DNA of 64,000 nucleotides from Escherichia coli (GTDB lineage Bacteria > Pseudomonadota > Gammaproteobacteria > Enterobacterales > Enterobacteriaceae). A program made the position numbers and the translations under genes. The notes beneath the pieces are model-generated. The model searched no databases and was not told where the DNA came from. It worked only from the letters and a program-made list of their open reading frames with translations. The stretch is from the NCBI RefSeq assembly GCF_046105845.1, contig NZ_CP151004.1; one strand, written 5' to 3'. Below, one piece after another: positions 50,394-59,200 of this stretch. Position 1 is the stretch's first letter, and each line of letters starts with the position of its first letter.

Positions 50394-50425
50394 GCCTGAT
50401 GCGACGCTGAAGCGTCTTATCAGGC
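50394..50425. repeat. REP element
   Basis: GCCTGATGCGACGCTGAAGCGTCTTATCAGGC palindrome between convergent yfcO and smrB. Confidence 0.75.
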
Positions 50426-50440
50426 ATTCGATGCCAGCAT

Positions 50441-50992
50441 TCACGGTAATTCCGGCGGCAACCACTCATCCACTTCAATCAACACCAGCAATGCCGCATC
50501 ACCACCGTACTCTTTTGGTGCCTGGTGAAATGCCATCACATGCGGATGTTGTGCCAGCCACAGCGGCGTTTGCTGCTTCAAAATATGCTTCCCATGACCA
50601 TGCATCACGCAGGCACAAAACACATGTTCGCGGCGACAGGCGGCAATCAATGCGCCTAATTCCTGCTTGGCTTGCAGCTGCGTCAAACCGTGCAAATCCA
50701 AAAACAGCTCCGGCGAATAATCGCCACGGCGCAGTTTCTTCGCCTCAAAATGGCTTACATCCGGGCGAACATATTTGACCGGACCTTCGGTATTTAATAA
50801 CGGCTGAAACTCATCGGAAAAATAATGGCTGGCATCGGCCTGCTCCTGAATCAACCGCTTCACCGGCACTTCGCTGATTTTCTTACGCTGCGGTCGGTGG
50901 ACAATCGTGTCCTGCTTAATCTTGCGAGTCCCCGCCATCAACTGGCGAAACAGAGCCTGGTCCTCCTCGCTAAGTGTTGTTTTCTTTTTCAT
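50441..50992 (-). CDS. smrB: Smr-domain ribosome-rescue endonuclease SmrB (YfcN)
   Basis: 183 aa with Smr domain; synteny. Confidence 0.9.
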
Positions 50993-51157
50993 TTATCTGT
51001 CTCTATTTCTAATTTTCCTACAGTTTACCCGACTCGTAGCGCAATCGATCGTTTTAAACGTATTTTTCCTCACTCACCGCGCGTGAATGCTGATTTATCG
51101 TCATCTTCATGGCAAACTAGCCGCCGAAATTATTGCGATCATGCCCTGGAGGAATAC

Positions 51158-52090
51158 GTGGATAAAATTTTCGTTGATGAAGCAGTAAATGAGCTGCAAA
51201 CCATTCAGGACATGTTGCGCTGGTCGGTGAGCCGCTTCAGCGCGGCGAATATCTGGTACGGCCACGGCACCGATAACCCGTGGGATGAAGCCGTGCAACT
51301 GGTGTTGCCTTCACTCTACCTGCCGCTGGATATCCCGGAAGATATGCGCACCGCGCGTCTGACCTCCAGCGAAAAACACCGTATTGTTGAACGCGTGATC
51401 CGCCGCGTCAATGAACGCATTCCGGTGGCCTACCTGACCAACAAAGCCTGGTTCTGCGGTCATGAATTTTACGTCGATGAACGTGTGCTGGTGCCGCGCT
51501 CGCCGATTGGTGAACTGATTAACAATAAATTTGCCGGACTCATCAGCAAGCAACCGCAGCACATTCTGGATATGTGCACCGGAAGCGGCTGCATTGCGAT
51601 TGCCTGTGCTTATGCTTTCCCGGAAGCGGAAGTCGACGCGGTAGATATCTCTCCCGACGCGCTGGCGGTTGCTGAACAGAACATCGAAGAACACGGTCTG
51701 ATCCACAACGTCATCCCGATTCGCTCCGATCTTTTCCGTGATTTGCCGAAAGTACAGTACGACCTGATCGTCACTAACCCGCCGTACGTCGATGCGGAAG
51801 ATATGTCCGACCTGCCAAATGAATACCGCCACGAGCCGGAACTGGGCCTGGCATCTGGCACCGACGGCCTGAAACTGACGCGTCGCATTCTCGGTAACGC
51901 GGCAGATTACCTCGCTGATGATGGCGTGCTGATTTGTGAAGTGGGCAACAGCATGGTACATCTTATGGAACAATATCCGGATGTTCCGTTCACCTGGCTG
52001 GAGTTTGATAACGGCGGCGATGGTGTGTTTATGCTCACCAAAGAGCAGCTTATTGCCGCACGAGAACATTTCGCGATTTATAAAGATTAA
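51158..52090 (+). CDS. prmB: Ribosomal protein L3 glutamine methyltransferase PrmB
   Basis: 310 aa from GTG ([14 protein letters not shown]...); NPPY motif; ORF-track start 50825 is an upstream extension. Confidence 0.9.
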
Positions 52091-52124
52091 GTAAACACGC
52101 AAACACAACAATAACGGAGCCGTG

Positions 52125-55745: not shown

Positions 55746-55762
55746 AGCAATGCCAGAGTAGA

Positions 55763-57769
55763 TTACCCCACCTTAACCGCTTTACCTTTCAACAATTTCC
55801 GCACCCATAACCGATTCGGGTTTAACGCCGCCAGCGTACTGGCATCCATCGGAATCGGTTCGTTGCTCATCTGCGCCGCCAGAATCTCGGCACACAGCGG
55901 GGCAGAACATAAACCGCGAGAACCCAAAGCAGCAACCATAAAGAGATCGTCATAAACCGGTGCGCTTACCGCCTCATCTTTCTGCTCCGCCAGCGACGCA
56001 TATTCCACGAGTGTAGCGTCATAATCGGGAACATTGCCTACCATTGGCAGATGATCGCGGGTGGCACAACGTACACCGCAACGCGCCTCTTTATCACTGA
56101 CATCAACCGCTTTCGCCCATTGTGCCTGCGGGAAACAATCAATCAACCGCTGGCGATTCTGCTGCTGATCGTCCTCACTGTACGCCGTATCTTCGCTGCC
56201 GCGATGATAACTGGCACCAATACAATGATGTTGATTCGCCGGATTTTGTGGCGTGAGATAACCGTCATAGCACAGCACCTGCTTCAGCTCCGCTAGTTCC
56301 GGCGTTGTCGGAATATGGCTAACCTGCCCGGCAACCGAATACACTGGCAGAGACGATGTTTGGCTGAAACGGCTGATTTGATGCCCGTTCGCCAGTACCA
56401 CTACATTGTGTGTTGCTTGCTGATCTCCTGCAAAATTCAGCAACCAACAGTCATCCTTACGGGATAAATCCTGTAACTGGTGTTGATAACGAATCTGTAA
56501 ACCTTGCTGTTGCGCCAGTTCCAGCACATTACAGGTCAGTTCTGCTGGACACAGCCATCCACCTTGCGGATATGTAATACCGCCACAATTTGTTACTACA
56601 CCTGAAACGCCTTCAACCTTATTCGCCCCGACCGCAACAGCCAGTTCTGTGGGTAAATCCATCGACAGCATCTGTGCGATTTTATGCTGGCTTTTCTCAT
56701 CCCAGCCTAACTGCGTGACGCCGCACCAGTCATGATCAAATTTGACGGGCAATAAATCGTAAAGCCGACGAGCAAAAGTAAACGCATTAGAGAAAAAGCG
56801 GTTCAACGCCTCATCGTGTTTACTTAAGAGCGGATACAGCGCCCCCTGGCGATTGCCGGAAGCACCCAGCGCGGGGGCTTCATCCGCGCAATAAAGCGTT
56901 ACCTGCCAGCCGCGACGTAATAGCGCCAGCGACAACAACGCGCTGGCAATACCGCCGCCGATAATCGCCACTTCCCGTTTGCTGCTGCCCGTGCGGTTAA
57001 ACCACGGCGTGGAGCAGGGGAGGGGTAATGCTTGCTCCATCACCCCACAAAGCATTTCCCGTTTGCGCCCAAAGCCCTTACGTTTTTGCATCGTGAATCC
57101 GGCTTCCTGTAAACCACGGCGGACAAAACCGGCAGACGTAAATGTCGCCAGCGTACCGCCCGGACGCGCCAGTCGGGCCATGGCGTTAAACAGATTTTGC
57201 GTCCACATATCCGGGTTTTTCGCTGGCGCAAAGCCGTCCAGAAACCAGGCATCTACTTTTTGATTTAGCGAATCGTCCAGTTGGCTGGTCAGTTCGTTAA
57301 TATCGCCAAACCATAAATCCAGCGTCACGCGGCCTTCATCGAGCAATAAACGATAGCAACCAGGCAAGGGCATTGGCCACTGCGCCTGAAGTTGTTCCGC
57401 CCACGGAGCCAGTTCCGGCCAGTGTTGATGCGCTAAGGCTAAATCAGTACGGGTGAGGGGAAATTTCTCAAAACTGATGAAATGTAAGCGTTGTAATTGC
57501 GCTTGCGGATGTGCTTCGCGAAACTGAACAAATGCCTGCCATAGCGTCAGGAAGTTTAATCCGGTGCCGAAGCCGCTCTCTGCTACCACAAACAGAGGAT
57601 GTGGATGTTCAGGAAAGCGTGCCTCTAATTGGTTACCTCCGAGAAAAACATAGCGTGTCTCTTCCAGTCCGTTATCGTTGGAAAAATAGACATCGTCAAA
57701 ATCTCGGGAAACAGGTGTACCCTCAGCATTAAATTCGAGGTTGGCAGGTTGTATGGAGTAGTGTTTCAC
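55763..57769 (-). CDS. mnmC: Bifunctional tRNA mnm5s2U biosynthesis protein MnmC
   Basis: 668 aa from a GTG ([17 protein letters not shown]...); ORF-track start 57829 adds 20 codons. Confidence 0.9.
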
Positions 57770-57927
57770 GTAAGTTACTCGTCTTACAGGCGGTGGCTCG
57801 ATCTTAGCGATGTGTGTCAGGCTGCGCAAATTTCTCTATTAATTGGCTGATCGGACTTGTTCGGCGTACAAGTGTACGCTATTGTGCATTCGAAACTTAC
57901 TCTATGTGCGACTTACAGAGGTATTGA

Positions 57928-59148
57928 ATGAAACGTGCAGTGATTACTGGCCTGGGCATTGTTTCCAGCATCGGTAATAACCAGCAGGAAGTCCTGGCAT
58001 CTCTGCGTGAAGGACGTTCAGGGATCACTTTCTCTCAGGAGCTGAAGGATTCCGGCATGCGTAGCCACGTCTGGGGCAACGTAAAACTGGATACCACTGG
58101 CCTCATTGACCGCAAAGTTGTGCGCTTTATGAGCGACGCATCCATTTATGCATTCCTTTCTATGGAGCAGGCAATTGCAGATGCTGGCCTCTCCCCGGAA
58201 GCTTACCAGAATAACCCGCGCGTTGGCCTGATTGCAGGTTCTGGCGGCGGTTCCCCGCGTTTCCAGGTCTTCGGCGCTGACGCAATGCGCGGCCCGCGCG
58301 GCCTGAAAGCGGTTGGCCCGTATGTGGTCACCAAAGCGATGGCATCTGGCGTTTCTGCCTGCCTCGCCACGCCGTTTAAAATTCACGGCGTTAACTACTC
58401 CATCAGCTCCGCGTGTGCGACTTCCGCACACTGTATCGGTAACGCAGTAGAGCAGATCCAACTGGGCAAACAGGACATAGTGTTTGCTGGCGGCGGCGAA
58501 GAGCTGTGCTGGGAAATGGCTTGCGAATTCGACGCGATGGGTGCGCTGTCTACCAAATACAACGACACCCCGGAAAAAGCCTCCCGTACTTATGACGCTC
58601 ACCGTGACGGTTTCGTTATCGCTGGCGGCGGCGGTATGGTGGTGGTCGAAGAACTGGAACACGCGTTGGCACGTGGTGCTCATATCTACGCTGAAATCGT
58701 TGGCTACGGCGCAACGTCTGATGGCGCAGACATGGTTGCTCCGTCTGGCGAAGGCGCAGTGCGTTGCATGAAGATGGCGATGCACGGTGTTGATACCCCA
58801 ATCGACTACCTGAACTCCCACGGTACTTCGACTCCGGTTGGCGACGTGAAAGAGCTGGCGGCTATCCGTGAAGTGTTCGGCGATAAGAGCCCGGCGATTT
58901 CTGCAACCAAAGCAATGACCGGTCACTCTCTGGGCGCTGCTGGCGTACAGGAAGCTATCTACTCTCTGCTGATGCTGGAACACGGCTTTATCGCCCCGAG
59001 CATCAACATTGAAGAGCTGGACGAACAGGCTGCGGGTCTGAACATCGTGACCGAAACGACCGATCGCGAACTGACCACCGTGATGTCTAACAGCTTCGGC
59101 TTCGGCGGCACCAACGCCACGCTGGTAATGCGTAAGCTGAAAGATTAA
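57928..59148 (+). CDS. fabB: 3-oxoacyl-ACP synthase I FabB
   Basis: 406 aa KAS I. Confidence 0.95.
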
Positions 59149-59165
59149 TTCGCAGTAAGTCGGAG

Positions 59166-59200
59166 TAGGTCGGATAAAACGCGCCAGCGTCGCATCCGAC
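59166..59200. repeat. REP element
   Basis: GTCGGATAAAACGCGCCAGCGTCGCATCCGAC palindrome after fabB. Confidence 0.7.

Follow-up and report, generated by a model that had tools for sequence, protein, structure and literature searches.

Three solitary and partly degenerate REP elements downstream of yfcO, yfcL and fabB in an Escherichia coli genome

REPs (repetitive extragenic palindromic sequences) are short imperfect palindromes found across intergenic DNA, and the domesticated Y1 transposase TnpA_REP (RayT) uses them as substrates. We analysed three such palindromes in a stretch of 64,000 nucleotides (nt) of Escherichia coli DNA from contig NZ_CP151004.1, referred to below as the window. The results make it very probable that all three are solitary E. 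coli REPs, or palindromic units, of type Z2 between yfcO and smrB, type Y between yfcL and mnmC, and Z2-like type between fabB and yfcJ, and that they are decayed remnants with a presumptive role as RNA hairpins in 3' untranslated regions (3' UTRs). The three sites and the genes around them are as follows.

50392 to 50427, + strand: REP site 1, a solitary palindromic unit of type Z2 in the spacer of the convergent pair yfcO and smrB
55714 to 55745, + strand: REP site 2, a solitary palindromic unit of type Y in the spacer of the convergent pair yfcL and mnmC
59165 to 59200, + strand: REP site 3 in the fabB 3' UTR, a GTAG and a Z2-like unit whose foot, GTCGGA/TCCGAC, is Y-like
49493 to 50371, + strand: yfcO-family fimbrial adhesin gene (from the list of open reading frames, start codon uncertain), stop codon TAG at 50369-50371
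50441 to 50992, - strand: smrB, convergent with yfcO, stop codon at 50441-50443
55429 to 55707, + strand: yfcL (PF08891), stop codon at 55705-55707
55763 to 57769, - strand: mnmC, convergent with yfcL, stop codon at 55763-55765
57928 to 59148, + strand: fabB, stop codon at 59146-59148
from 59423: start of yfcJ, in tandem after fabB

The genes were assigned from the positions of the open reading frames (ORFs) and by transfer from annotated orthologous regions; the yfcO orthologue in strain AST215, for example, is annotated as 'StfH/YfcO family fimbrial adhesin'. The original prediction had placed REP palindromes after yfcO, yfcL and fabB, and all three were present behind the stop codons of these genes, with coordinates that were right to within 1-2 nt. 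The yfcO|smrB spacer measures 69 nt, and its hairpin lies 20 nt past the yfcO stop and 13 nt from the smrB stop; the yfcL|mnmC spacer measures 55 nt, with the hairpin 6 nt past the yfcL stop and 17 nt from the mnmC stop; in the 274-nt fabB-yfcJ spacer the fabB stop is 16 nt upstream of the GTAG and 20 nt upstream of the hairpin. All three elements are therefore extragenic, 6-20 nt past stop codons. Two lie in convergent gene pairs and one in a tandem pair, in agreement with the split of roughly 60%/40% that was reported for K-12 (bioRxiv 10.64898/2026.03.23.713779). The K-12 RefSeq annotation of this region holds no repeat_region features, so no REP names could be transferred.

A repeat finder resolved each element into inverted arms separated by 2-4 nt. 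Site 1 (TGCCTGATGCGACGCTGAAGCGTCTTATCAGGCA at 50393-50426) has arms of 17 nt (50392-50408 and 50411-50427) that are 88% complementary, site 2 (TGCCGGATAAGGCGTTCACGCCATATCCGGCA at 55714-55745) has arms of 15 nt (55714-55728 and 55731-55745; 93%), and site 3 (GTAGGTCGGATAAAACGCGCCAGCGTCGCATCCGAC at 59165-59200) has arms of 14 nt (59169-59182 and 59187-59200; 79%) preceded by GTAG at 59165-59168. Published REP queries were taken from the text of Durrant et al. 2024 (PMC11208160), namely Y (TGCCGGATGCGGCGTAAACGCCTTATCCGGCCTAC), Z1 (GCCTGATGCGCTACGCTTATCAGGCCTACG) and Z2 (GCCTGATGCGACGCTGGCGCGTCTTATCAGGCCTACG). Alignment to the consensus, which had been set as the test of REP identity beforehand, gave 33/37 identities with Z2 at site 1 (local alignment score 29), 28/31 with Y on the - strand at site 2 (score 25), and 29/32 with Z2 at site 3 (score 26, CCTAC tail included). 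With a degenerate pattern of the Stern type (GCCKGATGCGRCGYNNNNRCGYCTTATCMGGC), 50394-50425 at site 1 was matched with 0 mismatches and 59169-59200 at site 3 with 3 mismatches, while a shorter Y-type pattern matched 55715-55744 at site 2 with 2 mismatches. Sliding local alignment against Y, Z1 and Z2 over the rest of the 64 kb (about 2100 segments) yielded a maximum score of 13-15, compared with 25-29 at the three sites, and neither this procedure nor blastn-short detected any further REP-like sequence in the window. In 100 dinucleotide-preserving shuffles of the window, these REP patterns were matched 0 times (expectation 0.00).

We then counted the family in 5,426 complete E. coli genomes with a 37-mer from each site, where counts of places from 40 upwards are lower bounds. 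Each 37-mer matched in 5,425 of these genomes, at a median of at least 40 places per genome (site 1, at least 38 to at least 40; site 2, at least 40; site 3, 19 to at least 40). Because the 37-mers recur at tens of places per genome, the three sites belong to a truly repeated family, and the claim that they are ordinary for this type of genome was borne out. In K-12, rayT is flanked by REPs that have been validated by experiment as TnpA_REP substrates (PMC3479197, PMC3333891), and the cores of the window sites are near-identical to these as well. The core of site 2 equals the Y REP of the K-12 REPtron save for two bulge bases; the crystallised Y REP reads GTAGGACGGATAAGGCGTTTACGCCGCATCCG (PMC3479197). 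The same data bear on whether the elements are chance palindromes, or operators of a site-specific DNA-binding protein, that have nothing to do with REPs. Their palindromic nature would agree with this, but the absence of matches in 100 shuffles, the background scores of at most 15 against 25-29, and the matches in E. coli genomes, which number in the hundreds of thousands, make it vanishingly improbable. Chance palindromes were rejected on the shuffles and the copy numbers.

Folding of the RNA gave very stable hairpins in both transcript orientations at site 1 (-28.2/-28.0 kcal/mol for the + and - strands) and at site 2 (-23.0/-23.3 kcal/mol on the two strands), with z about -6 at each. Sequence reading and a terminator scan revealed no U-tract or T-run after any of the three hairpins on the transcribed strands, and at the gathering threshold no Rfam family covered the three sites, the only matches in the window being a sar RNA and a tRNA. 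Behind fabB, a further hairpin was located downstream of site 3.

59234 to 59264, + strand: canonical intrinsic terminator of fabB, AAAAGGGAACC-CGAT-GGTTCCCTTTT then T, 34 nt downstream of REP site 3

This terminator consists of an 11-nt perfect inverted repeat, which folded as an 11-bp hairpin in a 121-nt context, and its hairpin (59234-59259) is followed by TTTTT. It looks bidirectional. The simple terminator scan of the window did not list it, probably because the stem extends through A/T pairs. Since the canonical terminator lies 34 nt further downstream, site 3 is situated inside the fabB 3' UTR and is not itself the terminator, and annotating the two separates the REP from the true end of the fabB transcript. 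The possibility that all three elements are simple Rho-independent terminators that merely resemble REPs draws on their being GC-rich hairpins just 3' of stop codons, and on a weak terminator-like site that the consensus scan reported on the - strand inside site 3. Yet the three hairpins have no U-run behind them on the relevant strand, fabB has a canonical terminator of its own, and a family with at least 40 copies per genome and a match to the REP consensus is unlike ordinary terminators. We consider this explanation extremely unlikely, and it was rejected on the absence of a U-tract after every REP.

We next compared the elements with what is known of intact REPs. E. coli REPs carry a GTAG 5' of the hairpin and a conserved AA/GC two-base mismatch, both of which are needed for TnpA_REP binding (PMC3333891, PMC8266576), and they are usually paired into bacterial interspersed mosaic elements (BIMEs), the functional substrate being a complete or partial BIME (PMC3333891). 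All three REPs of the window are solitary, and GTAG is kept only at site 3. At site 1 the + strand carries the published consensus (...CCTAC-3') and the - strand is the one on the GTAG side, which makes the unit an inverted REP (iREP) on the + strand in the Ton-Hoang convention; its CTAC tail has become ATTC, so that the GTAG/CTAC tag is absent, and its AA/GC bulge is intact. At site 2 the GTAG-side strand is the + strand, GTAGG is replaced by AATGT (AATG in the place of GTAG), and the bulge, AA/AT instead of AA/GC, is partly closed with one mismatch left. At site 3 the bulge is widened to AAA/CGC through a G>A change; the position is G in nine surveyed strains, and only FDAARGOS_1295 differs further (TAGG for TAAG). 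The original prediction had called the three sequences typical. This held for their sequence, structure, extragenic position and multiple copies, but not for their solitary state, the missing GTAG/CTAC at sites 1 and 2, or the altered bulges at sites 2 and 3. Given that TnpA_REP binding depends on both of these features, sites 1 and 2 have probably lost the capacity to be mobilised by this enzyme.

In relation to the described E. coli REP types Y and Z2 (Stern 1984; Bachellier; Ton-Hoang 2012, PMC3333891), the window units share 28-33 consensus identities, an imperfect palindrome with an internal mismatch, an extragenic position in a 3' UTR, and dozens or more copies. They differ in being solitary, in the loss of the tag at sites 1 and 2, in the bulges AA/AT (site 2) and AAA/CGC (site 3), and in the composition of site 3, which joins a Z2 top to a GTCGGA/TCCGAC foot with a duplicated GTAG-foot unit. 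As for BIMEs and REPINs (REP doublets, that is, two inverted REPs with a linker), the orthologous site 1 and site 2 loci of other strains are BIMEs, whereas each locus of the window has one unit and none of the three spacers contains a second REP. Nothing contradicts the identification as REPs: the three elements are of a kind already known, here solitary and somewhat degenerate, and nothing changes in what is known of REPs.

To trace how the sites arrived at this state, we compared the three loci in ten other strains (MG1655, MB53, N3, O157:H7 SS52, AST215, 32-4, LH85-a, STEC1585, FDAARGOS_1295 and 504211). At yfcO|smrB, the locus in N3 and O157:H7 SS52 holds a full BIME, in which a linker of about 39 nt joins a Z2 iREP to a Y REP. 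In AST215, 32-4 and the window, the left REP of this BIME is fused to the sequence 3' of the Y REP (ATCAGGC|ATTCGATGCCAGCAT), and the right flank of site 1 is the right flank of the Y REP in the BIME-bearing strains. Relative to the BIME allele about 70 nt are lost (74 alignment columns, comprising the linker and the Y REP), and the junction falls inside the directly repeated ATC(A/C)GGC arm ends. The position of the junction within these arm ends explains why site 1 lacks CTAC. Site 1 accordingly reads as the remnant of a two-REP BIME, which would have become a solo REP through an arm-to-arm deletion of about 70 nt that removed the linker, the Y REP and the CTAC tag. Further strains show differing partial decays of the same Z2/Y BIME. 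MG1655 and MB53 have no REP at this locus and carry an unrelated GC-rich hairpin (-26.1 kcal/mol), and FDAARGOS_1295 has yet another hairpin (-28.8 kcal/mol). As the REP-less strains carry an unrelated hairpin of similar stability, the comparison gives a weak suggestion that yfcO|smrB normally has some 3' hairpin, whether a REP or another. The sequences orthologous to window 50372-50440 in these REP-less strains are as follows.

11159 to 11228 of L001: MG1655
531 to 601 of L009: MB53
284 to 602 of L007: FDAARGOS_1295

The yfcO|smrB spacer and the 3' end of yfcO were strongly polymorphic among strains, one of which had an unrelated spacer of 319 nt. In strain 32-4, smrB is annotated as frameshifted (L004 1038-1588).

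At yfcL|mnmC, two main alleles were observed. The 120-nt allele, found in MG1655, O157, LH85-a, STEC1585 and FDAARGOS_1295, is a BIME made of a Z2 iREP, a 9-nt linker (ACGTCACAC) and a Y REP with GTAG; the 55-nt allele, found in the window, AST215, 32-4, MB53 and N3, has the Y unit alone without GTAG. Site 2 is the single-REP allele of a locus that has a Z2+Y BIME in many other strains. In strain 504211 (L003 5889-7287, orthologous to window 55708-55762), the insertion sequence IS621 lies within the Z2 iREP of the yfcL|mnmC BIME at ...TTATCAGGCCT|AC...; the insertion point agrees exactly with ATCAGGCCTAC, the natural bridge-RNA target as published, CT core included (PMC11208160). REPs are natural targets of IS621, as this BIME illustrates, but neither ATCAGGCCTAC nor ATCGGGCCTAC occurs on either strand of the window, and site 1 reads ATCAGGCATTC; the REPs of the window are for these reasons not IS621 targets.

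At site 3, we identified a small tandem repeat directly upstream of the REP. A 10-nt unit, GTAGGTCGGA, corresponds to the GTAG tag with the first 6 nt of the stem, and the window holds an additional, mutated copy of it, as read from the sequence.

59155 to 59164, + strand: GTAAGTCGGA, the additional copy of GTAGGTCGGA in mutated form, abutting REP site 3 on its 5' side

The unit forms a micro variable-number tandem repeat upstream of the fabB REP (window 59155-59174 and the orthologous positions in L001-L010). It was present once in LH85-a, N3 and FDAARGOS_1295 and twice in the window (the first copy being GTAAGTCGGA), 32-4 and O157. AST215 had three copies, 504211 and STEC1585 had an arrangement of 10+9+10 nt, while MG1655 and MB53 had two tags without GTCGGATAAG (a 10-nt deletion). 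Site 3 carries a locally duplicated GTAG-foot unit together with the substitution that widens its bulge. The variable copy number of GTAGGTCGGA could conceivably be a footprint of TnpA_REP-linked or hairpin-driven processing rather than of generic slippage, with the arm-to-arm deletion at yfcO|smrB as a second footprint, although we regard this as rather unlikely. If it were true, it would describe a general decay pathway from BIME to solitary untagged REP and would explain many single E. coli REPs without GTAG. This local pattern of decay and duplication, seen in the loss between the arms of site 1 and in the variable GTAG-foot unit of site 3, is the only mildly novel thread in the data.

The same strain comparison speaks to whether the three are mobile units, active at present and recently inserted, that serve TnpA_REP as REPIN/BIME substrates. 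GTAG and a bulged stem are retained at site 3, and the number of REPs at the three loci varies between strains, as would be expected of such units. However, each site consists of one unit, while a BIME, complete or partial, is what serves as the functional substrate (PMC3333891), and sites 1 and 2 lack GTAG/CTAC, a loss that E. coli TnpA_REP does not tolerate (PMC8266576). The junction at site 1 is explained by deletion inside an existing BIME, and the alleles are common to strains 2-3% divergent from the window, so their presence here is not recent. No rayT homologue was detected within the 64-kb window (K-12 RayT in tblastn, best E 1.8), a result that is uninformative in that the K-12 gene is about 2.2 Mb away. 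Strain-to-strain variability of BIMEs at a given locus has been described (PMC3333891). Present activity is very unlikely on this evidence, and it was rejected on the solitary units and the missing GTAG. The three copies are better read as worn-down remnants.

For the possible function of these remnants, each REP would be transcribed within a 3' UTR, at the two convergent pairs from both directions, and the transcript would form a stable RNA hairpin without a U-tract. Such a hairpin could hinder 3'->5' exonucleases and also serve as a partial, Rho-assisted terminator, and expression of the neighbouring genes would then be tuned in a context-dependent manner; at fabB, the true terminator would follow 34 nt further on. 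REPs in 3' UTRs have been shown to work as dual terminators and stabilisers (bioRxiv 10.64898/2026.03.23.713779), and in the same preprint the presence of REPs between convergent genes goes along with higher expression of both. By analogy, a role as a 3' RNA hairpin, serving as exonuclease barrier or partial terminator, is likely. Among experimental models, REP325 in yjdM-yjdN, a dual partial Rho-dependent terminator and messenger RNA (mRNA) stabiliser (bioRxiv 10.64898/2026.03.23.713779), is the best guide to how such elements may act on neighbouring genes. It belongs to the same family, lies in a 3' UTR and has no U-tract; unlike the window sites it has 12 palindromic units rather than one per site, two of the window sites lie between convergent and not tandem genes, and the window loci are known from sequence. 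REPs at most about 15 nt from a stop codon are also reported, by Liang, Rudd and Deutscher, to depress translation of the upstream gene through ribosome stalling; this would cover yfcL (6 nt) and smrB (13 nt), and we did not use it as evidence.

Several observations limit our interpretation of the sites. The copy number was measured in E. coli genomes other than the source genome. The 55-nt allele at site 2 is not a clean deletion derivative of the 120-nt allele, and either a deletion or a replacement may lie behind it. The hairpin of site 3 is weak (-20.2 kcal/mol, z -1.2) and no better than that of shuffled sequence, for which reason this site may be functionally inert; its orthologues fold to -26.4 kcal/mol in MG1655 and -25.4 kcal/mol in LH85-a. 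REP effects are moreover strongly context-dependent, and no general effect on mRNA half-life was found (bioRxiv 10.64898/2026.03.23.713779).

An alternative view is that the three are correctly identified REPs that persist as harmless neutral fossils, with no measurable effect on transcription, mRNA stability or translation. All three are degenerate (GTAG absent at sites 1 and 2, bulges altered at sites 2 and 3), the folding of site 3 does not exceed that of shuffles, and the presence, number and form of the REPs vary freely among strains at the three loci, MG1655 having no REP at site 1. Against this, the hairpins at sites 1 and 2 are very stable in both transcript orientations (z about -6), allele differences at these two sites fall in the loop and bulge and not in the paired stem (some site 3 alleles do vary in the stem), the REP-less strains at site 1 carry another strong hairpin, and REP-containing convergent pairs correlate with higher expression in the preprint. 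Neutral persistence is a plausible but less probable account, most of all for the weakly folding site 3, and we retain the reading of the sites as decayed REPs with a likely 3' hairpin role.

The original prediction had further held that the palindromes account for several spurious ORFs. Six ORFs of at least 30 amino acids do cross the REPs (50284-50478, 50334-50465, 55598-55750 and 59087-59263 on the - strand; 50392-50778 and 55671-55955 on the + strand), and in one of them, 50392-50778, the initial ATG belongs to the REP and the reading frame opens with MPDATLKRLIRH. The REPs supply the intergenic part of these ORFs, but most of the ORF length is antisense to or out of frame with real genes. 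Marking the three REPs keeps the six mechanical ORFs from passing as genes. Across strains, REP content differs at all three loci (solo REP, BIME, no REP, or a BIME disrupted by IS621), and the loci illustrate how REPs create non-coding, possibly regulatory, diversity beside conserved genes.

Elsewhere in the window, the first half (about 1-33000) is a P22-like (Lederbergvirus) prophage beside an argW-type tRNA-Arg(CCT), with the following RNA features.

26758 to 26824, - strand: sar antisense RNA (Rfam)
33018 to 33092, - strand: tRNA-Arg(CCT)

Window 14000-33000 matched Escherichia phage N7 (63% covered, 97.0% identity), Shigella phage Sf6 (52%, 96.0%) and HK620 (47%, 96.8%), and sliding local alignment found no REPs in the prophage part. 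Window 50000-60000 was unusually divergent: the best of the 5,426 complete E. coli genomes was 98.1% identical, most matches were at about 96% in an evenly spaced sample of the ranking, and all but 26 genomes were at 95-99%. In TUM14759 (hit H2), the orthologous 10-kb region is broken up by the IS4-like ISVsa5. No GTDB species-representative genome contained an exact match to a 66-mer that spans site 3. The exact MnmC protein was found on 7 contigs, one being a contig of 8,007 nt in the Logan assembly of run ERR13115083, which is 100% identical to window 52763-60769.

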